Virus record (IMG/VR): IMGVR_UViG_3300048088_000336
Span: 1 to 64,000 of that record
Length of the DNA stretch: 64,000 nucleotides
Reading direction: 5' to 3' (one strand)
DNA from: a virus
How positions within the stretch are numbered: position 1 is the stretch's first letter; every line of letters begins with the position of its first letter. Of the stretch, positions 3,953-21,485 are shown piece after piece. The translations under genes were made by a program, and so were the position numbers. The notes beneath the pieces were generated by a model. That model was not told the origin of the DNA and searched no databases. It was given only the letters and a program-made list of their open reading frames with translations.

Positions 3953-4264
3953 CTACTCCGTTGAGCTGATACCGGGCATGGTCGGCGGGTAGTCGTGGTG
4001 GGCGACGCTGGCGGCGACGGCCACGGCGAACGTGAGGGCCAGGGTGGTCGCGGCGAGCGCCAGGTAGCTCAGGATCAGTCCGGCGACGGCGAGCCCGTTT
4101 CCGCCTTCCCCGGTGGCGCGGATCTCTTTGCGGGCCAGGTGGCCGAGGACGATTCCGGCTGGCCAGAAAACGAACGCGAAGACCAGGGACAGGATCGCGA
4201 GGGTGTTGGTGCGAGGCGCCGGGGCCGGTAGCGGGGCCGGTGCGGTGGTGACGGGTGTGGTCAT
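3953..4264 (-). CDS. DUF4190-family membrane protein
   Basis: TNTLAILSLVFAF..PAGIVLGHLARKEI..GEGGNGLAVAGLILSY pattern. Confidence 0.85.
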   Translation of the reverse strand: MTTPVTTAPAPLPAPAPRTNTLAILSLVFAFVFWPAGIVLGHLARKEIRATGEGGNGLAVAGLILSYLALAATTLALTFAVAVAASVAHHDYPPTMPGISSTE

Positions 4265-4333
4265 TGGTGTGCCTTTCGGTCGGTCGGAACGGTTACGTCG
4301 ACTACATCGAACTGTTGGGCGTGCGCGTTACAG

Positions 4334-4375
4334 TTGTCTTCCTAGCGCGCACCCACTAGAGTTAGGGGTGTTCCG
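4334..4375 (+). promoter_or_regulatory. Sigma70-like promoter TTGTCT-N17-TAGAGT followed by N7-GTTCCG
   Basis: -35 at 4334-4339, -10 at 4357-4362, GTTCCG at 4370-4375, upstream of the DUF932 gene. Confidence 0.65.
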
Positions 4376-4397
4376 AGCCACCCGACAAGGGAGCCAC

Positions 4398-5348
4398 ATG
4401 ACCACAGCACTCGCCACCCGCCCCAGCGCCACCGCACTCCTCGGCGCCGACGTCCGACACACCACCAGCGCCGCCCAAGCACTCCAAGTCGCGGGCCTAT
4501 CCGGCCTCAACGTCGTCAAAGTCCCCGTCGTCACCGCCACCCACGGCGTCCTCGTCGAAAGCCGCTACGCCCTGGAAACCCACCAGCGCCCCCTGCCTGG
4601 GGTCACCGTCGGGGAAGACTTCGAGGTCGTCCAGTACGAGGAGAACGCCGACCTACTCGATGCGCTCGCCCGCCGCCTCGGCGCCAGCTTCGCCAACGCC
4701 GGGGCCCTCACCCTGTCCCGCGCGTTCGTCGCCCTAGAACTCCCCGAAGCCGTCATGGTCGGCCCCGACAAACTCATGATCACCGTCGCGGCGTTCATGG
4801 CCCACGGCAGCGCATCCAACTATCTCGTCCCCGGCGCCTGCCGCGTGATGTGCGCCAACCAACAAGACCAGATGCTCCGCGAAGGCCGCGACTACAAAAT
4901 CACCATCCGGCACACCGCCAGCGCGCACGAACGCACCGCCGCCGCCGAAGACACCCTCATGGCCACCGTCGCCAGCATGGATCACCTCGCCATCGAAGGC
5001 GAGATCATGCTCGACCAGCCCGTCACCGTCACCCAGTTCCGGGACATCGCCGACGCCCTCTACCCCCTGGGTGGGGACTCCAAATCAGCGCAAACCATCT
5101 ACGACCGGCGCATCGAAGTTCTCACCAGTATCTTCACCGGACCCACCAACACCAACATCGCCGGGACCGCGTGGGCCGCCTACCAAACCATCGCCGAGTA
5201 CGTGCAGTGGGCGATGAGTGTGCGCGGTGCCAGCGACACCGAACTCGACCACGCGCGGGCCCGCCGCGCGCTGACCTCCGGGACCGCGCACGCCACCCAG
5301 GTCAAAGCCTTCAACGTGATCCGTGACATGTTCGACCTGGCCCTCTAA
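4398..5348 (+). CDS. DUF932-family phage/plasmid protein
   Basis: SAAQALQVAGL, GEDFEVVQYEE, RVMCANQ, IRHTASA, GTAWAAYQTIAEY; SD AAGGGAG before ATG 4398. Confidence 0.8.
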   Translation: MTTALATRPSATALLGADVRHTTSAAQALQVAGLSGLNVVKVPVVTATHGVLVESRYALETHQRPLPGVTVGEDFEVVQYEENADLLDALARRLGASFANAGALTLSRAFVALELPEAVMVGPDKLMITVAAFMAHGSASNYLVPGACRVMCANQQDQMLREGRDYKITIRHTASAHERTAAAEDTLMATVASMDHLAIEGEIMLDQPVTVTQFRDIADALYPLGGDSKSAQTIYDRRIEVLTSIFTGPTNTNIAGTAWAAYQTIAEYVQWAMSVRGASDTELDHARARRALTSGTAHATQVKAFNVIRDMFDLAL

Positions 5349-5373
5349 CTCCACAGACTCCCAGGGCACGCTG

Positions 5374-5590
5374 CCGGTCGGCAGAGGGACCGCCGACCGG
5401 GGCCGCAAGCCCAATCGCCGGGTGGGAGCCGGTGTGAGACCTGGTGGGTACGGGACCCAGTGAGTACCAGGGGCAGCGCGCTTAGGTGCGGGGAAGGCAC
5501 CGACCGGCTGGGCGCGACCTTGATCAGTTGCCCCTGGTCACCAGGAAACGGGACGGTCCCCCTGCCTAGTGGCACTGGGCAGGGTGACCG
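5374..5590 (+). ncRNA. Candidate structured RNA in the 280-bp intergenic gap (strand uncertain)
   Basis: Nested stems 5374-82/5392-5400, 5440-46/5539-45, 5466-77/5527-38, 5477-85/5508-16 and 5554-70/5574-90. Confidence 0.35.
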
Positions 5591-5627
5591 CCCCCATCGT
5601 TCCGGCCACAATTTTCGAGGAGAGCCC

Positions 5628-5993
5628 ATGGCTAGGCGCAAGGCGGGGCACCGTCAGGTCACCCCCTTCTCCGACCTGCCCAACTGGTTGGCGATCAAAG
5701 TCACCGCCCAACGGCAAGGGTGGGCGGCGGGGCAACTCCGCTCCTGTGTCCACGATCCGAAACCTGGGCGCGCACCTGTGCACATGTGTGCATGGAAACC
5801 CGAACTGGTGACCTGCGCTGACTGCACGCACCTGTTCGTTGTCGTCGAATCCGGGGACCGCTGTGACTGCTGTGAGCGGGTCACCGCAGGCACCCCCGAG
5901 GATCACACCGAAGGGTTCCGCATGCGCGTCGCCGACGTCACGTACTGGGCTGTGGTGTGCCCGGTGTGCAAGAAGGACATGACCCGGGCCTAG
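5628..5993 (+). CDS. Cys-rich hypothetical protein, likely zinc-binding
   Basis: CADC, CDCC, CPVC; SD GAGGAG before ATG 5628. Confidence 0.75.
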   Translation: MARRKAGHRQVTPFSDLPNWLAIKVTAQRQGWAAGQLRSCVHDPKPGRAPVHMCAWKPELVTCADCTHLFVVVESGDRCDCCERVTAGTPEDHTEGFRMRVADVTYWAVVCPVCKKDMTRA

Positions 5994-6198
5994 AGCCGCG
6001 AAAGCCCCGCAGATGCGCTACGCGCACGGGGCGAGGCTTCCCGGGTTCCGGCCGCACCGAGGAGACGACACGGAGGTCTTACTGCCGCCATTGCTTACGA
6101 CAACCTCTACGCGTCAACCGATGTTGCGAGGCCGAGTGTAGCACTAGGGGTCCGACTGTTTCCAGATCGCGCGGCGTGCCCCCTGACCACCCCTGGCC

Positions 6199-6477
6199 GT
6201 GGCTGACACCATGCGTCGCGTGCAGCTCTGTATCGGTGACCGCGTCCACTATCGGTCACATGGCAGCCCGATCCTGATCGACGGCACCCAAATCCATGCC
6301 CCCAAGTGTCGTCCCGCTGACGTGATCGAACACCTGGGCGCCGAGGTGTGCATCCTGTTCGTCAAAAACCCGTCCGGGGTTTTCTTCGACGACTGCCGTC
6401 ATGACGAGACCCGTTGGCCTGATGCGCCCCCCGGTGAAGGCGGAACCTGGCACTACCCGTGTGACGTCAGCCCGTGA
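6199..6477 (+). CDS. Hypothetical phage protein
   Basis: IGDRVHYRSHGSP...CRPADV...GGTWHYP; GTGA overlap with the next gene. Confidence 0.75.
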   Translation: MADTMRRVQLCIGDRVHYRSHGSPILIDGTQIHAPKCRPADVIEHLGAEVCILFVKNPSGVFFDDCRHDETRWPDAPPGEGGTWHYPCDVSP

Positions 6478-6836
6478 CCGCCGAGTGCGCGCCCGGGTGC
6501 GGCGCCTGCTGCGAGACGGTGGTGATGGTCGTGCCCCCGGAGGACATGGAGGGACCGTCGGGGCCGTTCGCGCGGGAGCACTGGCACGTGTTCGAGAAGC
6601 TGGACAATCCCGAGTCGCCGACCGGGATCGAATACCACCTGCGGTGTGACCAGTTCGACCCGCATACTCGACGCTGTGGGGCGTACGCGGTGCGGCCACC
6701 GATCTGCGCGAACTACCCCCACTACGGGTCACCCATGAAGCCCGGCCACTCGAAGGCCGACGCGATCCCCCTGGTGTGCGCGTTCCAAGCTGATGTGCGC
6801 CGGGTTCTGCCCCTGGTGGCGATCAATGGCCGGTGA
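6474..6836 (+). CDS. YkgJ-family CxxCxxCC cysteine-cluster protein
   Basis: CAPGCGACC...C..FDPHTRRCGAYAVRPPICANYP. Confidence 0.85.
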   Translation: MTAECAPGCGACCETVVMVVPPEDMEGPSGPFAREHWHVFEKLDNPESPTGIEYHLRCDQFDPHTRRCGAYAVRPPICANYPHYGSPMKPGHSKADAIPLVCAFQADVRRVLPLVAINGR

Positions 6837-8724
6837 ACCCGAGGTGGTCGCTACTGAGGCGCCGTCACCGACGGATGACCCGGCCACCGGGCACACCGGG
6901 GGCATGCTGGCCCTGGTCCCCGACAATGTCGACGAACTCGCCGTCGAGGGTGGCCTGCCACCGGGGGAACTGCACCTGACGTTGATCTACCTGGGTGATG
7001 ATGTGACCACCTGGCCACCCGAGCAGACCGCGCACCTCAAAGCCCTGATCCAAGCCAGCGGACCGGGGTTGGATCCGGTATCGGCCCGCATCATGGGTCA
7101 CGCCCTGTTCAACCCCGATGGGGGTGCTGCCGGGGACAAGAATCCGTGCGTCGTCTACCTGGTGTCCGACACGCCCGACCTGGAACCCCTGCACAAATGG
7201 GCCACCTGGACGACGACGACGGGCGAGAATTACCCGACCCCGCCACCGCAGCACACCCCGTTCATTCCGCACATCACAGCGGGGGAGGACACCGGGGTCG
7301 ACGAGTTGTCCTACACCGGGCCGGTGCGGTTCTCGACACTGCGCCTGGCGTTGGGTGATGAGGTGACCGACGTCCCGTTGGGCGGCGGCGATCAGGAGGC
7401 TGACGTGCCCGGAGTTCAAGCGAAGTCGATCACGTTTACGCCCCCGAAAGCGGTCCGGGACGCCGCGTGGGACCTCGACGGGCCGGTCGCTGCTGATGTT
7501 GTCGAGGGCAAGGCCCTGGACGGTAATGGTTTGGCGTGGGTCGCGGCGCACTGTGGGCAGGCCGGTCGGGACTGGGCGCGGGACATGCTCGGTCGCGTCG
7601 AGGTCAAAGCCGACATGAACATGGGCCGGTACGCGGGCGGGGAGCACCCGAAGCTGGACAGTATCGAGGCCCTGCACAAGGCGGTGGAGGAGCACGGAAA
7701 CTGCCCCCCGGAGGACCGTCCGGCGCGGGTCCGCAAACTGCGGGCGCGGGCGAAGGAACTCGGTGCCAGCGCACACACCTACTCCCGGATCGACACCCTG
7801 GAGGGGGCGAGCACCGACGGGTCCGGGATCAAGGATGTCGACGACGGTGATGTGGAGTTCAAGTCGTGGGCGCCCGGCAACTCGGAACCTTCACCGATCC
7901 CGCACCTGGCCGCGTTGGGGCAGGCGATTACCGCGCATCCGAAGGTGCGGGACTCGCACAAGGCCAAGCACAAGAAGCATCTGGCTGCTGAGGCGCAGCG
8001 CCTGGGCGCGGGACCGGACGTGCACGCGAAGATCGGGTACCTGGAACCGCACTCGTTCTTCAATCAAACGAAATCCTTGGACGACTACGATGTCGAGTTC
8101 AAGGTCACGTCACCGGCGCCGGGGGCGTCGAGGTTGCGGGAGTACTGGGCGCGTAACCCGAAGGGCCGCGCGAAGTGGCGTCCCGGTAGTGGTGGGGATT
8201 TCAAGCGCCTGCGCCGTCATCTGGCGAAGTACGTGCACAATCCGAAGATCCTTAATGGGTTGACGGCGAACATTCACAAGATGGCCACCGGTGTGTGGCC
8301 TGGTAAAAACGCGCACACGATCCGGGAGAAGCCCGGTAAACCACTCACCTACGGAATCAAATCACTGGTCGCGTGGGAATCGGTGGAGCAGAAGACCGCC
8401 GCCACCGATGTGGACATGGCGGAGTTGTTCGCCGGGATCGAGGACTGGGGGCGCGAGTTCGTCACCGACGACGCGGAGGCCTACTTGGCCGCGCTGGCCG
8501 AAATCCAGGGCGACACCCCCGACGATGACATCGAAGCCCCCAGTGATGTGGAGCGCACCGCCGCGCTGGCCGCGCTCGGCGCGAAACTGGTTACCGACCC
8601 GGACCCGCAGGTTGAGGTGTCCGACAATGTCCAGGACACCGCACCGGACACCCCGGACATCGAACCGGGTGACCTGGCCAGCTTGTTCACTGATGCCCCC
8701 CCGGCTGTTGAGGCCCCAGCGTGA
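6826..8724 (+). CDS. Multi-domain head-associated protein: N-terminal 2H phosphoesterase (2'-5' RNA ligase/Acb1-like fold), small modules, acidic tail
   Basis: Two HxT motifs (LHLTL near 6973, PHITA near 7270); two similar helical modules; W..NPKGRAKWRPG..GDFKRL..HL..ATGVWPG module; GTGA overlap with the giant. Confidence 0.8.
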   Translation: MAGEPEVVATEAPSPTDDPATGHTGGMLALVPDNVDELAVEGGLPPGELHLTLIYLGDDVTTWPPEQTAHLKALIQASGPGLDPVSARIMGHALFNPDGGAAGDKNPCVVYLVSDTPDLEPLHKWATWTTTTGENYPTPPPQHTPFIPHITAGEDTGVDELSYTGPVRFSTLRLALGDEVTDVPLGGGDQEADVPGVQAKSITFTPPKAVRDAAWDLDGPVAADVVEGKALDGNGLAWVAAHCGQAGRDWARDMLGRVEVKADMNMGRYAGGEHPKLDSIEALHKAVEEHGNCPPEDRPARVRKLRARAKELGASAHTYSRIDTLEGASTDGSGIKDVDDGDVEFKSWAPGNSEPSPIPHLAALGQAITAHPKVRDSHKAKHKKHLAAEAQRLGAGPDVHAKIGYLEPHSFFNQTKSLDDYDVEFKVTSPAPGASRLREYWARNPKGRAKWRPGSGGDFKRLRRHLAKYVHNPKILNGLTANIHKMATGVWPGKNAHTIREKPGKPLTYGIKSLVAWESVEQKTAATDVDMAELFAGIEDWGREFVTDDAEAYLAALAEIQGDTPDDDIEAPSDVERTAALAALGAKLVTDPDPQVEVSDNVQDTAPDTPDIEPGDLASLFTDAPPAVEAPA

Positions 8725-11700
8725 CCACCACATTCCCTGATGACATCGAGGTGTCCGGGGACGTCCCGGACGATCTGACCGCGCTGGAATGGAAGTCCCT
8801 CCCGGCCGGTGAGACGTCGTCGCCGCTGACGGGGGTCATCGACCACAACGACGCGGACGGCACGATCACCGCACTGGTCGCGGTGACCGGGGTGAAGGAT
8901 TCGGTCGGGGACGTCATCGTGCCCGGCAGTGCCGATAAAGCGGTGAAGCGATTGAAGCCCAAGGGGGTGATGTCACACAACTGGGGGGATCGGGTATCGC
9001 GACTGATTTGGCATAAGGAACTGATGCCGGGTGACTCGATGTTGCCGAAGCAAACACCCCAGGGTGACCCGTGGCCCGCTAACGCGGGTGGTTTGCTGAT
9101 CAAAGCGAAGTACAATCTTGATAAGCAATCCGGTCGGGACGCTTACGCGGACGCGAAATTCTATGGGGCCGATGAGTGCTTCTCGATCGGCTACAAGGTG
9201 CGTCCGGGCGGTTCCCGGATGCGTGGCGCGACCCGGTATTTGCATGACTATGACCTGTACGAATGGTCACAGGTGCTTCACGGGGCTCACCCGTTGGCGA
9301 CTTTGACCGGCGTGAAATCCCTTGCAGACACTGTTGAAGCACCGTGGTACGATGGCACCCGTTCCGGTGACATCGAGGGGGATACCGCTTTGCCCGACGG
9401 TGTAGAAACCAAGGTCCGTGTCGTACGTGACGCGGACTTCTGGCACCTGCCCATCGGCACCCCCATCAAGCCCGGCATGGTCCCCCACGGCCTGAACCGG
9501 CCCCCCACCGAGCAGGAGATCCACGCCACCACCGCCGACGCCGGGGACGACAACGGTCTCCACGGGGCCCCCGACGCCGTCGCCACCCCCGGGATGCCCG
9601 GTGCGCCCGCCCCAGGCGGGCTCGGCATGCCCCCCATGCCGGACATGGCCCTGCCCATTCCCGGTCCGAAAGACGGGGACGCACCCACTGGTGACCCCGA
9701 TGCCGCTGTCGCGTTGTTGCGCACACGCGTGGGGGAGATCGAGAAACTCAACACTCCCGCCGCCCGGACCGCTAGCGCGGCACTGACTCCGTTCCTCGTT
9801 CCCGGTGCCCCGGTGCGCGCATCGGAGGATGGGCAGCTCGTCGCTGTGCACACCGGGGACGCGTGGCGGTTCGCTGACACCGCCAACGGTGGCGTCATGC
9901 AGGTCACCCTTCCGGGCACCCTGCCGCAACCCAACGTCGACATGGTGCTCCATGAGCTGGCCGGTGTCGGCATCCCGTGGGATTCGGTGGACGCACGGCG
10001 CAAGCGGTGGGAAAACCCTTCCCAGCTCCAAGCCGACAAGGCGACCGTGGCGGGCATTTTCGCTCGCGCGGGCACCCCGCCGACCACAACCCCGCCGGGC
10101 ATCGGTGGCGCTGGCATGGGCACCCCGCCACCGCCCGGCGTTCCGGGTGCGCCGGGGGCGGGACAGGGCGCTCCCGGCGCCCCACCCGCTACACCGGGGA
10201 TGCCGAACGCTTCTGTGGGTGCACCGCCGAGCATTCCCGCTACACCCGCACCGGCCCCCAACGTCCCCACAGCGCCCCCCACTCCGACTGTCCCAGCTAC
10301 GCCACCGGTGTCACCGAAGAAGTTCCCCAGGGGCTCAATCAAGGGCCACGGCATCGCCCCCGGTGACCGGATCCGGGTGCACGGGCACCCGAGGGGCACC
10401 CTGGAAGGCACGGTCGAGTCCGGCAAGAACGGGCACTCGATCGTTCACGATGACGGGTCGAAGACGTGGCTCGGTGGCACCGGGTCACGCCATCACGTGG
10501 AGAAGCTCGGCAAGGCCGCCGACCAGCCACCCAAACTCGCCACAGCATCGGCCGCGCCCCCAGCGTCGAAACCTGCACCGGAGCGCAAGCTGGCGTTCGC
10601 TCGATTCGACCGGATCGAGAACGTTCATGACCTCCCTGGCGCGATCCGAAGCGCGATCCTAAAACCGGACACCCTCGACAATCCGGCGCGCAGGCAAGCT
10701 CTCGCCGTCGCCCTGCACTCGTTGACAGAACCAACCGCCCCGAATAAACCCCCCGCCAAAGCTCACGTCCCTGACGATGTTGACCCCGCCGCGCTGGCCG
10801 ACGAATTAGACGGACTCGCCCAAGAGATCGAAGATCGCGGCAAGGGCCGCATAGCGATCACCCCCGCCCACCGAGGATCCGGCCGCACCGTCGTCGCCGA
10901 CCTGCGCGCGTTGGCTGCGGGGATCCGCACTCCCGCTGCGTCCGCCCCGGAGTCAGCGAAACCCCCTGCCCCAGTCGTCCCGGAGCCGTACAAGCCCACC
11001 GGCAACATCAACGCCCCCCATGAGCTGACCGACGAGCAGCTCGCCACTGAGGCCGCGCACGCCGCTACCCGGCACGCCCGTGCCCGTGCCAGTGGTGTCC
11101 CGAAAACGTCGGTGGAGCATCACGACTCGAAACTGGCGAACACCGTTTTCCAGGACGAGATCCGGCGTCGTGCTGTGGGTGGCGAGTCCGGGGTCAAACC
11201 CGCACCCAAACCCGGGCCCCCGGCCGCGCCGGAGACCCCAGCCGTCCCGGACAAGACCGGGGAAGTCCCCGAAGACGCACCCGATACCACGGTGCCCCTG
11301 CCGCAGGAGGCCGTGGATTCCGCTGACCGGATCCGTGCCGAGGCACTCGGCATCATCGACGGACCTGACGGGCAAGAGGAAGTCACTCCCGAGGTCGCCG
11401 ACCGGCAGGACCGCGTGGAGGGCTACCTCGTCGCCGGGGAAGCCGCCCTGGCCGATAAGACCGATGGGCAGCTCAGTGAAACCCGCAAAGACCTGACCGA
11501 CGAGCTGGCGCTTCAGGATGAGCTGAATCGCCGCGACACACAACGGCGCAAAGAGAGCGCCGCCGCCCGCAGTAGCCGATCCAGCAGTACGGCCGACCCC
11601 GTCAGGTCGGGCGACACCCCCGGAGCAACGGGCGACGGCACCCCCGAGGATACCGGCCCGAAACTACGTCCCGGTTTCGCTGGCGCCGCCGAGGACCTCG

Positions 11701-14700
11701 GCGACGCCCTGAACGCGAAACCCCGCGATGACGAGACGGTGAAAGCCGCCGCCGACCGGTTCGCGAAAATGTTGCGCCGTCACGGTGACTCAACCTCGTT
11801 CGACGCGGTCCGCACCGCCATCGGGGACGACATTCACGCCGCCATCGCGTCGGGTGACCTGAAGGCGGGGATGCTGTTCACCGCCGCTGGCGGTGTCCGG
11901 GAGCAGCGGCGGGTCGCCCGCAATGAGGGCGCGAAGAAGCGCCGGTTGGCGAAGCGCCTGGACCGGGATCGGATCAAGGCCCTGATCGGGTCAGTGGACG
12001 CGGAGGTCCGGGCCCGGAAGGATCGCGGCAGCGGTGCGGCGGCACCCAAGCCATCCCCGGCCCCGAGCGTCGCCGCATCGCCCAAAACGGGTCAGGGAAT
12101 CACCGCCACCGCCCAACACAACGCCGACGGCGGTGTCCACTACCTGGTTACGCACCCCGACGGGTCGTACACCACTGCCCGCTACAACTCCACCGGACCC
12201 CGCCGCACCCACGCGAGCACCGTGGACCGGGGGCCCGGCCTGAAACCGAACTCCGGTGGCCGCTACATCACGTCGATTCACTCCTCGGAGGAGTCCGCCG
12301 ACCAGTCGCACGACGCGTTCCCCAACGTCCCGCACATCGTCACCCCCATTGAGCACATCGGGGAGACCGGCAAGGCGGAGACTCCTGTCGTACCGGAAGC
12401 TTCCGGCCCGCGCGCCGATGCTGAGCAAGCCATCCGCGACGGTGACCGTATCGCCCTGGTCGATGCCCTTAAGGCGATGGGGGACACCGGGCCGCGTGAG
12501 ACCGCGATGCGCCTGCTGTCCCTGTCCGAAGACGACGCGATCACCGAACTCGATGACCATCCTGGGAAACGGGAAACAGCCAACCGCGCGGACCGCCATG
12601 CCGCCGCGCAGGTCGCTAACGCTGCCGGTGACTCCGCTGCCCTGACGGCCGCACTCACGGGGGAGCACCGCAAGCCTGACAATGCGCTGGATTCCAGGGA
12701 TGCGGCGGCAGCGCGGGAACGGGCCGCCGCTAAGCGCGCAGCGGTCAAGCCCGCCGTCGTCGTCGCTGACGGGCCGTCGAGGAGGGCGGAGTTCGACGCG
12801 TCCACCGCTGAAGACTTCCCCCCCAACACCCCGGTTCGACTGTTTCAAGACTGGGATCGAGAGCATGCCCGACCCGACCTCGCGAGCGACGTTACGGCGG
12901 TGCGCCGTGCCCGGAATGGCTACGTCACCGTGCGGGAATCGAAGGGCACGACAGTCGATGTTTTCCCGCGCCAGTTGGAGAAGCGCGATCAGGGTGCACA
13001 ATCGCCGCAGAAGGATGGAGGCGACGATGCCCAACGCGCTAGCGACACAAGCCGAAGCGTGGTACCAGAAGTACCAGCCGCAGACCTACGCGGGGATAGT
13101 AGACAAACCGAAGTTCTTCCAGGACCTGGCCGACCGAGCCCAGGAGCAGATCACCCAGGTCGCGGACCGGTTGGCGGGCCCGGACCAACCGGGGGAGACA
13201 TACCGGGACAAACTGGGGCGCCTGACAGCGGCACAACACGACGCGACGGAACTGGTGATGAGGGACTTCCTGGAAGCCCCACCGCCCCCGAACTGGACGG
13301 ACAGTCCCCTGCCGAGCCCGCCGAGCCCGGACCCGTCGATGCTTCCCGAGAAGACGGACCCGTGGGGGGACGCGATGGCGGACTTCGGGAACGCGAGCGC
13401 GGAACTGGATCAACAGAACCGGGTGACGAGGCAGCGGGAACTGCCGATACTGCCCCCGCGCCCGAGCCGGACAGTGCCGACGGCGTAACCGCCGAGCAGC
13501 CGGAGGCCGACACCGGGCAGGTAGATGCGATCCCCGACACCGGGGAGTCGTTTCACCCGTCGAGTGCTGATGATTTCGCGCCCGCCGGGAAGCGGGCGAA
13601 ACTGGATGCGAACCTCGCCGCCCTGCGGGTCCTGCGCCAGTTGCAGACCGAGCACCGCTCCGCCACCCCGGAGGAGCAGAGTGTCCTCGCCCGTTGGGCC
13701 GGGTGGGGTGGCCTGCCGGAAGTGTTCGACGACAAGAAGACCGCCTATGCGAAGGAACGCGACGAACTCCGTGGACTGCTGTCCGGTGGCGAGTGGAATG
13801 AGGCGAAACGCAACACCCTCAACGCGCACTACACATCGCCTGTCGTGGTGCAAGCACTGTGGAAGGCGATGGGTGATCTTGGATTCGACGGGGGGCGTGT
13901 ACTTGAGCCCGGTTCCGGGTCAGGCACCTTCATCGGCTACGCCCCCGAGGGCGCCGACATGGTCGGGGTCGAACTGGACTCGACGACCGCTGCGATCTCT
14001 CGTGCCCTCTACCCGCACGCGACGGTAAGGAACGAATCGTTCGCCGACACCCGGCTACCGGCCGGTAGCTTCGATGCGACCATCGGCAACGTGCCCTTCG
14101 GGGACTTCGCCCTGCGGGATCGGGTGCACAACCCCAACCGCGCCGAGTCGATCCACAACCACTTCATTCTCAAATCCCTCGCGTTGACCAAACCGGGTGG
14201 CATCGTCACTGTCCTGACCTCCCGGTACACCCTCGATGGCGAGAACCCCCGGGCCCGAAAGAAAATGGCGGAGATGGGGGACCTGCTCGGCGCGGTCCGC
14301 CTGCCCACCGGTAGCCACTCCAAAACCTCCGGTACCGACGTCATCGAAGACGCCCTGATCTTCCGGCGTCGTGAGCCGGGCGCGGATCCCCTCACCCCAC
14401 AAGACTGGATCAATTCCAGTAAACGCGACATTGACGGGATCGAGATCCCCGTCAACGACTACTTCACCGCGCACCCCGACCAGGTCCTCGGCGACGAGCA
14501 CGCCGAGAAGGGTCAGTACGGCAGCGGGTCCCTCATCGTGACCGGTGACAAGGCGATGCCGGAGCTGCCCGCCGCTCTGGCTCGAATCACCGACGGGGCG
14601 AACACCGCTGGCGCCACCGCTTCGGCGCGCATGGAAGGCCTCGCCGACTTCACCGCCCCCGACGACACCCGCCACGACGGGCACATCGCCGCCCACGACG

Positions 14701-17700
14701 ACGGCAGTTTCACCCAGGCCTCCCAAGGCGCGGCCGTACCGTTTGCGGTACCGGAGAAGCAGGCTGAGGAGTTGCGTGGCCTGATCGGCATGCGCGACAC
14801 CCTGTCGACCCTGCTCACCGCCGAATCCCAGTCCGTGTCCAACTCCCCGGAGATCCGGGAACTGCGCAAGACACTGAACGACCAGTACGACGCCTACGTC
14901 AAACGCTACGGGCCGATTAACCGCTACACCCTGACCAAGTCGGGGGCCCGCAACGCTCCCGGTCAGGGCGGGTTCCGGCGTGACCCCATGTCGGCGATCG
15001 TGCGGGCCCTGGAGATCTACAACCCGGAGACCGGCAAAGCTGTTAAGACCGACATCTTCACCAAACGGTCCGTGTCCCCCCGGGAGATCCCCACCCACGC
15101 CGACAACCCCGAGGACGCACTGGCGTTGTCCCTGGACACCTACGGGGAAGTCAACCTCGGTGAGATCGCGAAAATGTTGCACACCGATGAGGCCACCGCC
15201 CGCAGACGTCTCGGTGACCTCATCTTCGAGCAGCCACCGCTGACCGATGACGAACTCGACAAGTCGTGGACCGCGCACCAGGAAGACCACGGGGGTATCC
15301 CTGACCAGGACATCGCGGCTGGGACCGTGGACCTGTCCTCGGTCGGCGAGTCGGTCCGGGCTGAGGGCAATCTCGAACCGGCCGCCGCCTACCTGTCCGG
15401 CAACGTGCGCCGCAAACTGGCCGCCGCCGAAGCCGCCGCCGCGCACGATCCCCGGTTCCAAACCAACGTCGACGCGTTGAAGAAAGTCATCCCCGCTGAT
15501 CTGGGGGTCGATGAGGTCGACGGCCGGTTGGGTGCCGCGTGGATCCCCGCTGATGACGTCAAAACGTTCATGATCGACCTGTTGCACGGTGGCGACAACC
15601 GGTACAACCCCGTGCAGGTGTCCACCTCCGGGGGTGGGATCTGGACCGTCGTCGGGGGCGATCACGGCAACGTCGCCACCGAACAGTGGGGCACGAAACG
15701 GAAGTCCGCTGGTGAACTGATCGCCGCCATGCTGGAGCAGAAACCGATCCGTGTAGTGGACACGATCGACGGGAAGTCCTACCCGAACCTGGAGGAAACC
15801 CTCGCGGCGCAGGCGAAGGCCGACGAGATCTCCGAACGTTTCTCCGAATGGTTGTTCGAGGACTCCGCGCGCACCAAACGTCTCCTGGCCGCCTACAACA
15901 ATCAGTTCAACGCGGTCCGGTTGCGGTCCTACGATGGTGTGGATCGGGTGTTCCCGGGGATGACGTCGAGCGGGTGGAAACCCCGCGCGCATCAGGTGGC
16001 GGCCGTCAACCGGATCGTCTCGGAACCGTGTGCGCTGCTCGCCCACGTGGTGGGTGCGGGGAAGACCGCTGAGATGGCGATGGGTGCCGCCGAACTCAAA
16101 CGCCTGAGGATGGCGCGCAAACCCGCGATCGTGGTGCCGTCGCACATGCTGGAGCAGTTCACCCGCGAGTACCTCCAAATCTATCCGAGGGCGAAGATCC
16201 TGGCCGCTGGCACGGAGGACCTGGACGGGGATAAGCGCCGGGAGTTCGTGGCGCGCGCCGCTACGGGGCAGTGGGATTGCGTCATCCTCACCAAGGATGC
16301 GATGCAACTCATTCCCATGAGTCAAGACGCGCAGAAAGCCTACATTGATCGTGAAATGGCCACGATGCGCGCCCAGTTGGAGGCCGCGCAGGGCAGTGGT
16401 GGGGACGCCGCGCATCAAGCGACCGTGAAGAAAATGGAAAAGGCCGTCATCAAGGCTGAGGAGGCCCTGAAGGCGAAACTGGAGAAGACGAAAGACGCGG
16501 GGGTGTCTTTCGAGCAGACCGGCATCGACTACCTGTTCGTCGATGAGGCCCACCAGTACTCGAACCTGCGGACCGTGTCCAACATACAGGGCGCGGGGGC
16601 GTCCGGGTCGGGTATCGCCACCGACCTGCACATGAAGATCGAGCACCTGCGGGCCAACAATGAGTCGGGCCGGGTGGCGACGTTCGCTACCGGCACACCG
16701 ATTCGTAACACCGTGACACAGGCATACATTATGCAACGGTTCATGCGCCCCGACCTGCTGAAAGAAGCGGGGGTGCATTCGTTCGACCAGTGGGCCGCCA
16801 CGTTCGGGCAAACCGTTGACGAGATGGAACTCAAACCGGAGGGCACGGGGTTCCGGCAGACCACCCGGTTCGCGAAGTTCCGCAATGTGCCTGAACTGCT
16901 GCGCCTGTTTCAGATTTTCGCGGACGTCAAGACCGCTGAGGACCTCAACCTGCCCACCCCGGACCTGGCCGGTGGGTCGGTGGACAATGTGGTTGTCCCG
17001 AGCACCGATGAGCTGCGGGAGACCATGGCGGAGTTGGCGCACCGCGCCGACCAGTACCGGGCGGGGTCCCCGGAGAAGCGCACCAACGCGGCCGGTACCG
17101 GTGAAGTCGACGACATGATGCTGCTGATCAGCATGGATGGTCGCAAAGCCGCGATGCGCCAGTCGGACAAACTGGACATGGCGGCGGAGAAGATCGCGGA
17201 CATCTGGGGAAAGAACAAGAACAAGCCCATCCCGAAAGACTTGGATGACCCCACCGCTGGGGATGACCCCCCACCCGGTGGGATGCAAATCGTGTTCTGT
17301 GACATGTTCACCCCCAAGGGTGGCGCCAAGAGTGACGTCGAGCAGCGAACCGAGTACGACGACGGGGACAACTTCGACGCCTACGCTGCCTTGCGGGCGA
17401 AACTGGCGGACCGGGGCATGGATCCGAAACGGATCCGGTTCATGCACGAGGCCAAGAATGACCGTCAGAAGGCCGAACTGTTCGCCGCCGCACGCAATGG
17501 TGGCCTGGATGTTCTCGTCGGCTCCACGGAGAAGATGGGGGTCGGTACGAACGTCCAGAGACGCGCGGTGGCCCTGCACCATTTGGATGCCCCGTGGCGC
17601 CCCTCGGATCTTGAGCAGCGTGACGGCCGGATCATGCGCCAAGGCAATGCCAACGACGAGGTCTCAATCCACCGGTATGTCACCGAGGGCTCATTCGACG

Positions 17701-19781
17701 CCTACATGTGGCAGACCCTGGAACGCAAAAAGAAGTTCATCGACCAGATCATGGGCGGCAGCCTCGACCAGCGGGAGATCGAGGACGTTGGTGAGACGGC
17801 CCTGTCCTACGCTGAGGTCAAGGCGCTGGCGACAGGCAACCCCCTGCTGTTGCAGAAGGCCACCGTCGACACCGCGATCGGGAAACTGTCCCGCCTGGAG
17901 CGCACCCACAACCGCACCCAAACCAACCTCCGGCGTGACGTCGTCGCCTTCCGGGCCAACGCGGAAGCCTCCGACGCCTACGTCAAAAAAATGGACGCGG
18001 CCGTCAAAGCCCGCACTGACATCACGGGCGACAACTTCGCGATGACCGTGCACGGCACCACCACCCGCGACCGGGGTGAGGCCGCGTCCATGCTCAAAGC
18101 CGCTGTCGAGGACGTCATCCGCAACGACTACGGGTACGGGAAGCGGGCCAAGCCCGTCGCGGAGTTCGGTGGACACAAACTGATGGCCACCGTCGAGGAT
18201 CATTACGACCGCAATGGGGCCCGCCGCCGTGGCGTGACCTTGACCTGGGACGGGGTGCCCGGGGGTGCGAGTGGTGGTAACGCGACCGCCGCGTCGATCA
18301 GCTACCAGCAGCTCGCCAGTGGTGGCATCGGGCAGGGCACCCTGGCGACGCTAGCGCATTCCCTGCACTCCTTCGAGTCGCACCGCGACATCTCCGCTGA
18401 TCACGCCACCCGTTTGCGGTCCGAAGCGGATGTGATGGAAGCCCGGGTGGGCACCGAGTTCCCGCACGCGGGCGCACTGAAAACCGCCCGGGATGAGTCC
18501 GCCCGGCTGAAGGCCACAATGGAGGCATCCGGGATCCGGGAGGACGCCGGGCCCGGTGAGTCGGACGCGGCGAAGAACTTGGCCACCGCGCGGACGAAAG
18601 CCGCTGGGCAGGCCGCCCGCATGGGCCGCTCCGGTGGAAACGCGGCCACCACGCTCAAGAGGTTCGGGAACTCCACCGCCACCCCCGGCGCGGTGGCCTC
18701 CCCCAACGGCGCGGTCGGCGCGTACATGCACAACGGGGACTTCAAAGTGTTCCTGACCGATGACGGGGTCGATGTCCGGGACCTGGCCGGGATCTCCTCC
18801 GATGACCTCAAGGGTGTGGTCAAGGACCCGCAGGGGTTGGTGGATGACCTGGCGAAACTGGACCTTCCCTTCGATGAGGGCGCGCGCTCCCTGTATCGGC
18901 GTTGGAACGGGGACTACTCCTACAGCCCACCGGACTACTCGAAGTCCTACGAGGAACGGGAAGCGATCGCTCAAGCCAAACGGGACAAGCTCAAAGCTGG
19001 GGAGACGGCCGACAAGAACGCGATCAAGGCTGTGTTCGCGCGGCACCTCACGGACGCACCTGTTGAACCGGAACTGACCGGGGTCGACGCCGCGAAACGG
19101 GCCGCTGCCCGCGCGGCGGAAAACGACCGCATCGGGGACCTGGCGAAGAAGCGACTGAAGCGGTTCGCGAAAGCCAGTAAACGCATCCCCCACTACGCGT
19201 CCCCCGACGGGAAGATCGGGGCCGTCACCGACACCGATGGCGGGCTGGAGTTCTTCGCCACCGGCAACGGCATGCTGCTCAACGCCCCCGGTTCGGTGGG
19301 GCCCGTCGATGACCCGCAGGCCGTGGTCGATGAGATCGCCGCACTCGGTGTGCCCCTGGGTGATTCAGAAGTCCGGTATGAGCGGTGGGGGCGTGGGGAC
19401 GGGCAGCAAAATGAGGACGTGACCGCGATCCGGGGCATCCTCACCCGGCATGCTGACCTCATGGGTGAGAAGTCGGCGATCATCGGGGCGTGGGAGTTGC
19501 TGCGCGCGCAGCGCCTCGACATTGAAGTGAAGGCCCGCGCGGACCGGGCGGCTGGGGAGGTCACCCCCACCCCGGACCCGGAACTGGAACCGTTCACGGT
19601 GCTCGTCGCCGATGACGTTCGCTACACGATGGACGCATCCGGGACCCTGCAACGTCTCATGCCGTGCCCGGCGTGCGGTCAGGAGATGATGGTGCCCGCG
19701 TTCGGGGAGTCCGAGACACCACCGTGCCCCTCGTGCGGTGCGGTCCCCACTGTGGACAAGCGCCGGGCACCGGTGGGTTGA
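8721..19781 (+). CDS. 3686-aa giant: HK97-type prohead protease fused to a DarB-like N6-adenine methyltransferase, an SNF2/SF2 helicase and a C-terminal zinc ribbon
   Basis: Protease DSVGDVIVPG, SHNW, FSIGY, LYEWSQVLHGAHPLA (about 8850-9315); MTase ANLAAL..EQSVLARWAGWGG, VLEPGSGSG (13899), GNVPFG (14088); helicase AHVVGAGKT (16041), DEAH (16542), ATGTP, GVGTNVQ, QRDGRIMRQGN (17616); CPAC..CPSC at the end. Confidence 0.9.
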   Translation: MTTTFPDDIEVSGDVPDDLTALEWKSLPAGETSSPLTGVIDHNDADGTITALVAVTGVKDSVGDVIVPGSADKAVKRLKPKGVMSHNWGDRVSRLIWHKELMPGDSMLPKQTPQGDPWPANAGGLLIKAKYNLDKQSGRDAYADAKFYGADECFSIGYKVRPGGSRMRGATRYLHDYDLYEWSQVLHGAHPLATLTGVKSLADTVEAPWYDGTRSGDIEGDTALPDGVETKVRVVRDADFWHLPIGTPIKPGMVPHGLNRPPTEQEIHATTADAGDDNGLHGAPDAVATPGMPGAPAPGGLGMPPMPDMALPIPGPKDGDAPTGDPDAAVALLRTRVGEIEKLNTPAARTASAALTPFLVPGAPVRASEDGQLVAVHTGDAWRFADTANGGVMQVTLPGTLPQPNVDMVLHELAGVGIPWDSVDARRKRWENPSQLQADKATVAGIFARAGTPPTTTPPGIGGAGMGTPPPPGVPGAPGAGQGAPGAPPATPGMPNASVGAPPSIPATPAPAPNVPTAPPTPTVPATPPVSPKKFPRGSIKGHGIAPGDRIRVHGHPRGTLEGTVESGKNGHSIVHDDGSKTWLGGTGSRHHVEKLGKAADQPPKLATASAAPPASKPAPERKLAFARFDRIENVHDLPGAIRSAILKPDTLDNPARRQALAVALHSLTEPTAPNKPPAKAHVPDDVDPAALADELDGLAQEIEDRGKGRIAITPAHRGSGRTVVADLRALAAGIRTPAASAPESAKPPAPVVPEPYKPTGNINAPHELTDEQLATEAAHAATRHARARASGVPKTSVEHHDSKLANTVFQDEIRRRAVGGESGVKPAPKPGPPAAPETPAVPDKTGEVPEDAPDTTVPLPQEAVDSADRIRAEALGIIDGPDGQEEVTPEVADRQDRVEGYLVAGEAALADKTDGQLSETRKDLTDELALQDELNRRDTQRRKESAAARSSRSSSTADPVRSGDTPGATGDGTPEDTGPKLRPGFAGAAEDLGDALNAKPRDDETVKAAADRFAKMLRRHGDSTSFDAVRTAIGDDIHAAIASGDLKAGMLFTAAGGVREQRRVARNEGAKKRRLAKRLDRDRIKALIGSVDAEVRARKDRGSGAAAPKPSPAPSVAASPKTGQGITATAQHNADGGVHYLVTHPDGSYTTARYNSTGPRRTHASTVDRGPGLKPNSGGRYITSIHSSEESADQSHDAFPNVPHIVTPIEHIGETGKAETPVVPEASGPRADAEQAIRDGDRIALVDALKAMGDTGPRETAMRLLSLSEDDAITELDDHPGKRETANRADRHAAAQVANAAGDSAALTAALTGEHRKPDNALDSRDAAAARERAAAKRAAVKPAVVVADGPSRRAEFDASTAEDFPPNTPVRLFQDWDREHARPDLASDVTAVRRARNGYVTVRESKGTTVDVFPRQLEKRDQGAQSPQKDGGDDAQRASDTSRSVVPEVPAADLRGDSRQTEVLPGPGRPSPGADHPGRGPVGGPGPTGGDIPGQTGAPDSGTTRRDGTGDEGLPGSPTAPELDGQSPAEPAEPGPVDASREDGPVGGRDGGLRERERGTGSTEPGDEAAGTADTAPAPEPDSADGVTAEQPEADTGQVDAIPDTGESFHPSSADDFAPAGKRAKLDANLAALRVLRQLQTEHRSATPEEQSVLARWAGWGGLPEVFDDKKTAYAKERDELRGLLSGGEWNEAKRNTLNAHYTSPVVVQALWKAMGDLGFDGGRVLEPGSGSGTFIGYAPEGADMVGVELDSTTAAISRALYPHATVRNESFADTRLPAGSFDATIGNVPFGDFALRDRVHNPNRAESIHNHFILKSLALTKPGGIVTVLTSRYTLDGENPRARKKMAEMGDLLGAVRLPTGSHSKTSGTDVIEDALIFRRREPGADPLTPQDWINSSKRDIDGIEIPVNDYFTAHPDQVLGDEHAEKGQYGSGSLIVTGDKAMPELPAALARITDGANTAGATASARMEGLADFTAPDDTRHDGHIAAHDDGSFTQASQGAAVPFAVPEKQAEELRGLIGMRDTLSTLLTAESQSVSNSPEIRELRKTLNDQYDAYVKRYGPINRYTLTKSGARNAPGQGGFRRDPMSAIVRALEIYNPETGKAVKTDIFTKRSVSPREIPTHADNPEDALALSLDTYGEVNLGEIAKMLHTDEATARRRLGDLIFEQPPLTDDELDKSWTAHQEDHGGIPDQDIAAGTVDLSSVGESVRAEGNLEPAAAYLSGNVRRKLAAAEAAAAHDPRFQTNVDALKKVIPADLGVDEVDGRLGAAWIPADDVKTFMIDLLHGGDNRYNPVQVSTSGGGIWTVVGGDHGNVATEQWGTKRKSAGELIAAMLEQKPIRVVDTIDGKSYPNLEETLAAQAKADEISERFSEWLFEDSARTKRLLAAYNNQFNAVRLRSYDGVDRVFPGMTSSGWKPRAHQVAAVNRIVSEPCALLAHVVGAGKTAEMAMGAAELKRLRMARKPAIVVPSHMLEQFTREYLQIYPRAKILAAGTEDLDGDKRREFVARAATGQWDCVILTKDAMQLIPMSQDAQKAYIDREMATMRAQLEAAQGSGGDAAHQATVKKMEKAVIKAEEALKAKLEKTKDAGVSFEQTGIDYLFVDEAHQYSNLRTVSNIQGAGASGSGIATDLHMKIEHLRANNESGRVATFATGTPIRNTVTQAYIMQRFMRPDLLKEAGVHSFDQWAATFGQTVDEMELKPEGTGFRQTTRFAKFRNVPELLRLFQIFADVKTAEDLNLPTPDLAGGSVDNVVVPSTDELRETMAELAHRADQYRAGSPEKRTNAAGTGEVDDMMLLISMDGRKAAMRQSDKLDMAAEKIADIWGKNKNKPIPKDLDDPTAGDDPPPGGMQIVFCDMFTPKGGAKSDVEQRTEYDDGDNFDAYAALRAKLADRGMDPKRIRFMHEAKNDRQKAELFAAARNGGLDVLVGSTEKMGVGTNVQRRAVALHHLDAPWRPSDLEQRDGRIMRQGNANDEVSIHRYVTEGSFDAYMWQTLERKKKFIDQIMGGSLDQREIEDVGETALSYAEVKALATGNPLLLQKATVDTAIGKLSRLERTHNRTQTNLRRDVVAFRANAEASDAYVKKMDAAVKARTDITGDNFAMTVHGTTTRDRGEAASMLKAAVEDVIRNDYGYGKRAKPVAEFGGHKLMATVEDHYDRNGARRRGVTLTWDGVPGGASGGNATAASISYQQLASGGIGQGTLATLAHSLHSFESHRDISADHATRLRSEADVMEARVGTEFPHAGALKTARDESARLKATMEASGIREDAGPGESDAAKNLATARTKAAGQAARMGRSGGNAATTLKRFGNSTATPGAVASPNGAVGAYMHNGDFKVFLTDDGVDVRDLAGISSDDLKGVVKDPQGLVDDLAKLDLPFDEGARSLYRRWNGDYSYSPPDYSKSYEEREAIAQAKRDKLKAGETADKNAIKAVFARHLTDAPVEPELTGVDAAKRAAARAAENDRIGDLAKKRLKRFAKASKRIPHYASPDGKIGAVTDTDGGLEFFATGNGMLLNAPGSVGPVDDPQAVVDEIAALGVPLGDSEVRYERWGRGDGQQNEDVTAIRGILTRHADLMGEKSAIIGAWELLRAQRLDIEVKARADRAAGEVTPTPDPELEPFTVLVADDVRYTMDASGTLQRLMPCPACGQEMMVPAFGESETPPCPSCGAVPTVDKRRAPVG
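13027..13488 (+). CDS. Nested overlapping gene (+1 frame inside the giant), TnpV-like helical protein
   Basis: GGAGG 13017-21, 5 nt, then ATG 13027; 153 aa MPNALATQAEAWYQKYQPQTYAGIVDKPKFFQDLADRAQEQI..AGPDQPGETYRDKLGRLTAAQHDATELVMRDFL; the giant's frame is low-complexity over the same span. Confidence 0.75.
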   Translation: MPNALATQAEAWYQKYQPQTYAGIVDKPKFFQDLADRAQEQITQVADRLAGPDQPGETYRDKLGRLTAAQHDATELVMRDFLEAPPPPNWTDSPLPSPPSPDPSMLPEKTDPWGDAMADFGNASAELDQQNRVTRQRELPILPPRPSRTVPTA

Positions 19782-19787: not shown

Positions 19788-19844
19788 GACAGCCCCCGGA
19801 GGGGGGACACCGGGGGCTGTCGGGCTGGGGTTACTCGCCCCAGC
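19788..19844 (+). terminator. Double hairpin downstream of the giant (terminator or processing signal)
   Basis: GACAGCCCCCGG 19788-99 pairs with CCGGGGGCTGTC 19810-21; GCTGGGG 19824-30 pairs with CCCCAGC 19838-44. Confidence 0.55.
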
Positions 19845-20129: not shown

Positions 20130-21485
20130 GTGCCCGACACACTGACCCACCACGACAAAGATTTGATTGATCGTGGGCGGGCTGAGGTCAAGAGCCTCAA
20201 CACCAAACTGGATGAGATCACCAAGTCTGGGTGGCTGGACGGCGACGGCAACATGCACGTCGAACCGGGTGCCCTCGCGGAGTTCAAGTCGACCCTGGCC
20301 GCCGCTGAGGAAGCGCACGGCATCGTCGCCGCCCTCGAACGCAAAGGCGCCCTCGATGCGTGGCTGGACGCCCCGGCGACGGATTCCCCGGCCGCGTTGG
20401 CCGCTGGGCAGGCCGGTGGCGGCAGTCAGCTCATGCGCCCAGCGGAGTACAAGTCTTTGGGGCAGCGGTTCATTGAGTCGACCGAGTTCAAGGGCCACCG
20501 TGACTCCGGGTTCATGGACTCCGCTTTCGTTGTCGAAGACCAGGAGATCACTTACGGGGCGCAGTTCAAGGACGTGCACTCCGGGTCGATCGGCACCGTC
20601 ACCCACCCCGGTTTCGGCACGGTTCAGCGCGCACCGATGGTGTCGGCGCCGATGCTCACCTGGCGGGTGCGTGATCTTTTCCCGCAGATGAACACCAACT
20701 CGGTGATGATTGAGTTCATTGAGGAGTTGGGGTTCGTCGACGCGGGCGACAATGCCGCCGCGATGGTGCCCGAACGTGAGGGCACACCACCTACGGACAC
20801 GTTCGGTCTGAAGCCGAAGTCAACGATTCACTTCAACATCAAGACCACGCCGATTCGGACCCTGGCGCACTGGGTTCCCGCGTCCCGCAACGTGCTCGAT
20901 GACGAACCGCAGTTGCGGGGAATCATCGACACGCGCCTGCTGTACGGCCTGCGCCTGGTCGAGGACCAGCAGTTGCTGCTGGGTGACGGCACTGGACAGA
21001 ACCTGCTCGGCATTTTCAACACGCCGGGTATCCAATTGTTCCCCTCCGGCACCTACCACGCGCCCACCAACGAAACGTATGTCGACGCCATTCGCCGGGG
21101 TGCGACTCGCGTCATGCTGGCACAATACGACCCGACCGGCGTAGTTGTTCATCCTTACGATTGGGAAAGGATGGAGCTGACCAAGGACACCCAGGGCCGG
21201 TACCTGGTTGCCGGGTCGGTCACTTCCGGTGCCGAGAAGCGTTTGTGGCAGATGCCCGTGGTCGCCACCCCCGCGTGCCCGGAGGGCACGGCCCTGATTG
21301 GTGCGTTCGGTTTGGGCGCGCAAGTTTTCGACCGGATGCAATCCAATATCCGCACCGCTGACCAGCACGCGGACTTCTTCATTCGTAACGCGATCGTGGT
21401 CCTGGCGGAGGAGCGGCTCGGTTTGGCCGTGTACCGGCCCGCGTCGATGGTGAAGGTCAACCTGGCCGCCGCGATCGCCGCCTGA
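20130..21485 (+). CDS. Major capsid protein (HK97 fold) with N-terminal scaffolding/delta region
   Basis: TLAHWVPASRNVLDD, EDQQLLLGDGTGQNLLGI, VVHPYDW..KDTQGRYL, FIRNAIVVLAEERLGLAVYRP; SD AGGAGG. Confidence 0.95.
   Translation: MPDTLTHHDKDLIDRGRAEVKSLNTKLDEITKSGWLDGDGNMHVEPGALAEFKSTLAAAEEAHGIVAALERKGALDAWLDAPATDSPAALAAGQAGGGSQLMRPAEYKSLGQRFIESTEFKGHRDSGFMDSAFVVEDQEITYGAQFKDVHSGSIGTVTHPGFGTVQRAPMVSAPMLTWRVRDLFPQMNTNSVMIEFIEELGFVDAGDNAAAMVPEREGTPPTDTFGLKPKSTIHFNIKTTPIRTLAHWVPASRNVLDDEPQLRGIIDTRLLYGLRLVEDQQLLLGDGTGQNLLGIFNTPGIQLFPSGTYHAPTNETYVDAIRRGATRVMLAQYDPTGVVVHPYDWERMELTKDTQGRYLVAGSVTSGAEKRLWQMPVVATPACPEGTALIGAFGLGAQVFDRMQSNIRTADQHADFFIRNAIVVLAEERLGLAVYRPASMVKVNLAAAIAA

Follow-up and report, generated by a model that had tools for sequence, protein, structure and literature searches.

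A single gene joins a prohead protease to a DarB-like methylase-helicase

We analyzed a stretch of viral DNA of 64,000 nucleotides (nt) (positions 1 to 64,000 of IMG/VR record IMGVR_UViG_3300048088_000336; hereafter, the window), which is part of a 79,462-bp linear virus contig with a completeness of ~66% and a G+C content of 67%. The source is an uncultured soil phage of actinobacteria. The window contains a single uninterrupted open reading frame (ORF) of 3,686 codons, here called the giant ORF, in which a prohead protease is followed by a methylase-helicase resembling DarB of phage P1 (Table 1). The genes lie in the order portal (40-1806), MuF-like (1760-3139), DUF932 (4113-5348), 2H-phosphoesterase-like (6793-8724), giant ORF and HK97-type capsid gene (20094/20130-21485). 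The giant ORF starts with GTG, which is preceded by GAGG 8 nt to its 5' side and overlaps the stop codon of the preceding ORF as GTGA. Further, the N-termini coincide in all relatives of the giant protein, which share the start M/V-TTT.

An earlier note, made from the letters of this DNA, had described an uninterrupted 11-kb ORF in the protease slot before the capsid gene, comprising an HK97-type protease with its His and Ser motifs, long Pro/Ala linkers, an adenine methyltransferase (VLEPGSG, NVPF), a complete SNF2-like helicase and a terminal zinc ribbon, and had likened the methylase-helicase to P1 DarB. All of these features were recovered. The ORF occupies the protease slot, with the portal and MuF genes upstream, and the long Pro/Ala linkers are present; the evidence for the individual domains is given below. 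Thus, protease, methylase and helicase stand in one ORF of the head module, the arrangement by which polyvalent proteins are recognized.

Table 1. Features of the giant ORF and its 3' flank (aa, amino acids; HMM, hidden Markov model; an arrow marks a candidate cut).
Feature	Position (nt)	Strand	Residues	Remarks
Giant ORF	8721..19781	+	3,686 aa, ~390 kDa	Protease, chassis domains, DarB-like methylase-helicase, zinc-ribbon tail
HK97/assemblin-type prohead serine protease domain	8838..9338	+	aa 40-206	His86, nt 8976-8978; Ser155, nt 9183-9185
V-E-T-K, candidate self-cleavage site	9402..9413	+	aa 228-231	Disordered linker just after protease; E-x-K conserved in large relatives
Conserved peptide tag VRVVRDADFWHLPIGTPIKPGM	9414..9491	+	aa 232-257	Directly after K231; one copy in window
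Unnamed module of ~95 aa, copy 1	9810..10049	+	aa 364-443	HMM built from C-terminal copies, E = 1.5e-10
Helical middle domain of chassis	11241..12023	+	aa 841-1101	60% identity to P0027 residues 777-1034; conservation profile
Low-complexity Gly/Pro/Arg/Asp stretch	12990..13490	+	aa 1424-1590	Giant frame read across +1-frame gene
Nested TnpV-like gene	13027..13488	+ (+1 frame)	153 aa	GGAGG 6 nt before ATG; TAA 45 nt before methylase homology
N6-adenine DNA methyltransferase domain	13536..14582	+	aa 1606-1954	phrog_1685, phrog_37568; P1 DarB residues 45-274 align, E = 1e-21
Methylase motif I; motif IV (NVPF)	13899-13931; 14085-14102	+
SWI2/SNF2-type helicase region	15366..18608	+	aa 2216-3296	phrog_10089; Pfam ResIII, Helicase_C, SNF2-rel_dom
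Helicase motifs GAGKT; DEAH; motif VI	16053-16067; 16542-16553; 17616-17645	+
95-aa module, copies 2 and 3	18648..19433	+	aa 3310-3413 and 3476-3571	HMM, E = 7e-26 and 1.6e-31
C-terminal tail	19461..19778	+		G-E-K3584, 19461-19475; I-E-V-K3604, 19521-19532; acidic disordered linker; zinc ribbon, 19665-19736
Hairpin, G+C-rich inverted repeat (AGCCCCCGG..CCGGGGGCT)	19790..19818	+		Directly 3' of the giant ORF's stop; read from sequence
HK97-type major capsid protein with N-terminal delta region	20130..21485	+		Pfam Phage_capsid, E = 6e-40; HK97 gp5, E = 3e-50
Capsid-protein [E/Q]-x-K motifs	Ends at 20451-20453 and 20568-20570	+		AEYK↓SLG and QFK↓DV

The giant ORF recurs in independent assemblies

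The earlier note had proposed a search for prohead protease, methylase and SNF2 helicase in one chain. When the first 260 residues of the giant protein were used as the query against proteins of 2,027-6,451 aa, we found 17 further giants (3,067-4,625 aa), each with the same N-terminal protease (56-85% identity) and a methylase-helicase. These came from JGI, Logan and NCBI assemblies, including a metagenome-assembled genome of Pseudonocardiaceae. Two of the 17 lie in complete, terminally repeated genomes (121.5 and 120.2 kb), in both of which the sole protease match falls within a long open frame (3,660 or 3,580 aa) that immediately precedes a capsid gene that is 87% identical. The G+C content at third codon positions (GC3) was 0.68-0.89 along the giant frame and well above that at first positions (GC1) over most of it, with the exception of nt 12921-13520. 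Among public reads, no contig bridged the giant ORF; only two soil or rhizosphere runs contained 7-9% of the sampled words, and read-derived contigs of 151-323 nt matched the ORF at scattered places only. We concluded that the giant ORF is one real gene; the assembly error joining two genes, which the earlier note had considered as a refutation, is not the case, as the architecture recurs in independent metagenome assemblies. At window positions 14901-14907, a low-depth rhizosphere contig carried an insertion (+1) and a deletion (-1) separated by six bases, and the frame was kept.

The first domain is an HK97-type prohead protease

Residues 40-206 matched phrog_80, 'head maturation protease' (E = 1.3e-17), and were 44-50% identical to capsid maturation proteases annotated in phages of Gordonia (Bendigovirus) and Brevibacterium. 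Both His86 (SHNW) and Ser155 (FSIGY) were invariant in an alignment of 22 sequences. In an AlphaFold2 (AF2) model, the core of the domain had a predicted local distance difference test score (pLDDT) of 84-95 and resembled T4 gp21 (5jbl_A; Z = 10.6, root-mean-square deviation of 2.7 over 126 residues), after which herpesvirus assemblins ranked with Z values of 6-9. The Pfam S78 model did not reach the protease sequence of the giant protein itself; it passed the cut-off in relatives that are 40-47% identical (P0019, P0020, P0022 and DalanDe gp27). A PDB sequence search with the protease region gave no match. The profile match, the annotated homologues, the invariant residues and the predicted fold agree in identifying an HK97-type protease. 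Further, we found no other S78, ClpP, S49 or S77 match in the contig or in the two complete relatives, and by sequence the first domain of the giant protein is the sole detectable prohead protease in all three.

A DarB-like cassette is inserted in a long protease chassis

Direct comparison of the giant protein with P1 DarB confirmed their homology. BLASTP returned three collinear segments (E = 1e-21, 2e-14 and 8e-15) that together span residues 1606-3296, the second and third of which align P1 DarB residues 784-1201 and 1461-1562 to the helicase region. The profile phrog_10089, 'DarB-like antirestriction', matched with E = 0. The methylase motifs VLEPGSGSGTF (residues 1727-1737) and GNVPFG (1789-1794) are intact, as are helicase motifs I, II and VI (GAGKT at 2445, DEAH at 2608 and QRDGRIMRQG at 2966). 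When the DarB-like core was searched by tblastn, 142 phage records matched with ~31-36% identity over >90% of its 1,660 residues, and many of these were named DarB-like. There was no in-frame start codon near the beginning of the methylase, so that a separate DarB-like product from an internal start is unlikely. No DarB-like gene was found in the cultured phages GMA6, DalanDe and Gilgamesh.

The relative P0027 (1,634 aa, from a Logan contig of 66 kb; 65% identity) comprises the protease, a peptide tag described below, the first copy of the 95-aa module, the middle domain and the zinc-ribbon tail, without a methylase-helicase. Thus, within a long protease chassis, the DarB-like core forms a cassette. 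Within the wider family the protease is N-terminal in 66 of 67 proteins and is followed by 134-4,421 aa, where Zeta toxin, AAA_33, 2H/LigT, NUDIX and ADP-ribosyltransferase domains occur as other cargos. A protease-NUDIX fusion is present in a cultured phage: gp52 of Streptomyces phage Gilgamesh (9016-10941), annotated as 'hydrolase', consists of a homologue of the protease followed by L-E-Y-K and a NUDIX box. Gilgamesh gp48 (4,624 aa) is unrelated to the giant protein.

One copy of the 95-aa module follows the protease and two follow the helicase. Copies 2 and 3 were well folded in the AF2 model; Foldseek with the model of residues 2890-3686 returned long-helix look-alikes only, and we therefore assigned no fold to the module or the tail. 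The module was not detectable in GMA6 gp19, DalanDe gp27 or Gilgamesh gp52. Pfam gave no match in residues 301-1600, and in the tail only sub-threshold zinc-ribbon or Lar-like matches. The terminal zinc ribbon (CPAC at 3649, CPSC at 3669) has all four Cys residues invariant among the relatives. Its match to the Pfam family Lar (restriction alleviation) in window 18501-19778 (E = 0.025; 15 bits against a cut-off of 28.6) probably reflects generic zinc-ribbon likeness only.

The +1 frame ahead of the methylase contains a nested TnpV-like gene

In the exceptional stretch at nt 12921-13520, GC3 of the giant frame falls to 0.52-0.60 and GC1 rises to 0.78-0.84; the GC3 signal moves to the +1 frame, and the same shift was seen in the relatives. 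Substitutions by codon position in the giant frame at this place were 0.37/0.25/0.31, as against 0.15/0.12/0.46 in controls. The +1 frame holds a gene with a strong ribosome-binding site, whose product is an ordinary-looking protein conserved in the relatives. The Gly/Pro/Arg-rich 'linker' of the giant protein at residues 1424-1590 is therefore the second reading of this gene.

The nested product had 384 homologues at E <= 1e-3, mostly proteins of 90-200 aa aligned from the N-terminus. The product encoded in the window had no Pfam match; one homologue matched Pfam TnpV (PF14198) with E = 4.4e-4, below the cut-off. By tblastn, stand-alone copies were found on actinobacterial plasmids under the NCBI name 'TnpV protein' (E down to 5e-11), and no match was found in the cultured-phage collection. 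On a Micromonospora plasmid, the +1 frame of a 2,502-aa DarB-like gene that is 43% identical to the giant protein likewise contains this ORF, nested ahead of the methylase. In Paenarthrobacter aurescens pTC2, a DarB-like gene is overlapped by a TnpV-like ORF along its first 150 codons. Since its place is the same in DarB-like genes of plasmids, the nested gene belongs to the cassette. Together with the giant frame, it clearly qualifies as a candidate for an overlapping gene pair of long standing in mobile elements of high G+C content.

A conserved peptide tag follows K231

Directly after E-T-K231 stands a conserved tag of 25 aa with the pattern VRVVRD..W.LPIGTPI, which is kept in every large relative, irrespective of the cargo or C-terminus present. 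In GMA6, gp13 (an ADP-ribosyltransferase; 5278-6393) and gp14 (an HNH protein; 6390-9419) are not fused to a protease; both start with a leader of ~25 aa, followed by E-x-K and then the tag, at residues 25-50. By tblastn we found the tag also in VIP2-like ADP-ribosyltransferase toxins of related Gordonia phages and internally in a MuF/protease fusion protein of mycobacteriophage Argie. The tag had a pLDDT of 74-80 in the AF2 model, far above that of the linker before it (<40, and <50 at residues 197-230), and the model suggests that it packs on the protease domain. From its distribution, the tag is a shared mark of head-module cargo and may be the real docking or recognition element. As it also heads unfused cargo in GMA6, the tag, and not the covalent link alone, may direct loading or cutting.

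Candidate cut sites in the giant protein and the capsid protein

The earlier note had proposed that sites at nt 9411 and 19470/19530 release the cargo. The first and the last of these found support: the E-T-K231 motif (nt 9411) is kept in all large relatives across cargo classes, and at K3604 (nt 19530, E-V-K) ~15 of 18 relatives have [E/Q]-x-K. The middle site, K3584, is taken up below. In the capsid protein, the key positions of the motifs [E/Q]-x-K↓S-L-G and [E/Q]-x-K↓D are kept in 50 of 52 and 52 of 52 homologues, respectively, and in an alignment to HK97 gp5 the mature N-terminus matches K147↓D148, the second motif. These two conserved motifs fit a protease of that specificity, and they are candidate sites at which the protease of the giant protein may cleave the capsid delta domain. 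The capsid gene is annotated in public data with a start 12 codons after the first GTG of its ORF (20130 as against 20094; 451 as against 463 aa).

Proposed mechanism and alternatives

We interpret the giant protein as a polyvalent protein of the phage type that begins with the phage's own protease for capsid maturation and whose cargo would be packaged, freed and injected, and we give this interpretation a probability of about 0.62. One frame joins the only recognizable prohead protease, a chassis (tag, 95-aa module, helical middle domain and zinc-ribbon tail) and the DarB-like methylase-helicase cassette. The giant protein would enter the procapsid together with the capsid protein by way of its protease region, the tag after K231 and/or the C-terminal tail. 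After closure of the shell, the protease would cut after [E/Q]-x-K, in the capsid delta region (K↓SLG and K↓DV) and in its own chain at K231 and K3604, and in relatives also at the position of K3584, so that a methylase-helicase piece of ~370 kDa would be freed inside the head. The cargo would then leave with the DNA and, as judged by homology to P1 DarB, act in cis to shield this DNA from restriction in the next host. We infer the packaging and release of the methylase-helicase from its fusion to the protease and from the position of the gene; its anti-restriction role is proposed by analogy.

The 17 further independent assemblies and the conserved synteny to the capsid gene were counted in favor of this interpretation. 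Several observations weigh against it. At nt 19470 the sequence of the window is degenerate (G-E-K3584), and the motif fits in the relatives only. The motif [E/Q]-x-K occurs in the giant protein at the rate expected by chance (14 observed, 15 expected from shuffles), and six of the conserved copies fall within the folded helicase, so that by itself it predicts little; we looked for depletion of the motif inside the cargo and saw none. Because the motif is short and occurs at the chance rate, only its positional conservation counts. The closest cultured relatives, GMA6 and DalanDe, are without E-x-K at the first capsid site. Further, if every protease molecule carries 390 kDa, the number of copies per head is constrained, and this leaves sufficient protease activity unexplained. 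Finally, given the tag on the unfused gp13 and gp14 of GMA6, loading of the cargo may not depend on its covalent link to the protease; for the same reason, the claim of the earlier note that fusion to the protease guarantees encapsidation without dedicated loading proteins was not supported.

This last point leads to the strongest alternative, a serious one that we hold at somewhat under even odds, in which the tag rather than the fusion is the signal for loading and processing, and fusion is not needed for encapsidation. Cargo would then consist of a short leader, an E-x-K cut site and V[RK]xV[RK]D..[YFW]WGxPxGTPI, docking on the protease or the capsid interior, and the protease in the giant protein would merely replace the leader, perhaps tying the amount of cargo to that of the protease. 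The site and tag in the stand-alone GMA6 proteins, the Argie fusion protein and the Gordonia VIP2-like toxins argue for it, as do the conservation of the tag irrespective of cargo and its predicted packing on the protease domain. On the other hand, the giant protein is the only carrier of the tag in the window, and the tag stands after the presumed cut, whereas the T4 targeting peptide is removed. This alternative overlaps with the delivery of a protease-borne cargo proposed above and does not exclude it.

We consider it unlikely that the methylase-helicase is not delivered and instead has its role within the head or in the cell that produces the phage, for example by methylating phage DNA during packaging. 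Injection is deduced from P1 DarB only, and a methylase tethered in the head would meet each genome as it is packaged. However, the methylase needs S-adenosylmethionine and the helicase ATP, both of which are scarce in a closed head; the action of P1 DarB is in cis, on DNA that is entering the cell (PMC5512222); and the conserved cut motifs that flank the cargo suggest its release.

Less probable still is that the N-terminal domain processes only the polyprotein, with the capsid protein left uncut or cut by a host enzyme or one not recognized here. Processing roles have been proposed for peptidases of polyvalent proteins (Iyer et al., 2017, PMC5512222), and maturation without cleavage occurs in some phages. 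Against this, the gene occupies the protease slot before the capsid gene, its nearest homologues are ordinary maturation proteases of cultured phages, the complete genomes held no other protease match, and the N-terminal region of the capsid protein is delta-like and carries two [E/Q]-x-K motifs of the invariant type.

That the long ORF is an artefact, either of an assembly or frameshift error joining genes or of a chance open frame, is scarcely credible: at 67% G+C long spurious ORFs do occur (e.g., 14055-17642 on the minus strand), nt 12921-13520 is without the coding signature of the giant frame and no read set spanned the complete ORF, but 18 independent assemblies (56-85% identity), two complete genomes among them, keep a single frame, GC3 periodicity backs the giant frame everywhere outside that stretch, and the Micromonospora plasmid gene also keeps an open frame across the nested gene.

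Going beyond a packaged protease-cargo fusion in one phage, we tentatively suggest, with rather less confidence than would make it the expected outcome, that a modular cargo-loading system exists in a large clade of soil actinophages, together with a DarB-like cassette that moves between phages and conjugative plasmids. The loading system may consist of a maturation protease at the N-terminus (or, in its place, a short leader), an [E/Q]-x-K site and the 25-residue docking tag, which may load, trim and later inject whatever enzyme cassette stands behind them; the traveling DarB-like unit may include the overlapping TnpV-like gene in its second frame. If so, these phages would achieve by a covalent link and a short tag the DarB loading for which P1 needs five helper proteins, and this would be a compact, sequence-defined route for very large enzymes into a capsid and out again. 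GMA6 and its genus, in which the tag stands on small toxins, offer a ready experimental system for testing this. Further, a 390-kDa protein can serve an entire phage clade as its maturation protease, which raises questions of copy number and activation.

Comparison with known systems

The protease of the giant protein is of the same fold class as HK97 gp4, with a His/Ser catalytic pair, and the capsid protein is a strong homologue of HK97 gp5 with a delta-like region. HK97 gp5 is cut after Lys103, and the C-terminal tail of gp4 targets the protease into proheads. In contrast to gp4, which has ~225 residues and digests itself, the giant protein has 3,468 residues behind the protease that are presumably retained.

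P1 DarB is a 250-kDa head protein present in ~40 copies, with an N-terminal targeting signal (PMC9024508), and protects incoming DNA from type I restriction, acting in cis (PMC5512222). The giant protein shares with it an N6-adenine methylase followed by a SWI2/SNF2-type helicase, in three collinear segments, and both genes adjoin head genes. However, P1 DarB is a separate protein, and its loading depends on an N-terminal signal of 30 residues and on five helper proteins (the Dar system: Hdf, DarA, DdrA, DdrB, Ulx), whereas in the giant protein ~1,600 residues, including the maturation protease, precede the methylase, and the identity between the two is only 24-37%. A homologue of P1 DarA was not detected in the three genomes, which is a weak negative.

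Polyvalent proteins combine many unrelated domains in one polypeptide and are encoded among head genes, and the methylase-SNF2 dyad is their commonest shared module (PMC5512222). The fusion of an assemblin-like peptidase to polyvalent proteins was already noted in a few cases, and a role in processing the protein in the course of assembly was proposed for the peptidase (Iyer et al., 2017, PMC5512222). Thus, the giant protein is a variant of fusions already described, not a new kind of idea. It differs in that the peptidase was reported to be 'always at the C termini' (PMC5512222), whereas in the family of the giant protein it is almost always N-terminal and is the only maturation protease; TnpV, nested genes and the tag are not mentioned there.

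In other head carriers, such as T4 IPIII and the MuF- or portal-fused effectors, a head component or a short peptide brings the effector in and the head protease trims it (PMC9024508, PMC5512222); the Argie 'capsid maturation protease and MuF-like fusion protein' bears the same tag internally. Unlike these, the carrier in the giant protein is the protease itself, and the tag stands after, not before, the presumed cut. Our literature searches found no description of a protease-DarB fusion, of the tag or of Bendigovirus biology.

Flanking genes and the 3' end of the giant ORF

The ORF at 6793-8724 (643 aa), which contains a 2H-phosphoesterase/LigT-like domain, is translationally coupled to the giant ORF. 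In many Streptomyces prophages, such a domain is fused to the protease itself. Between the hairpin and the capsid gene lie ~300 nt without an obvious gene; the hairpin and this gap upstream of the capsid gene suggest separate expression levels for the giant and capsid genes.

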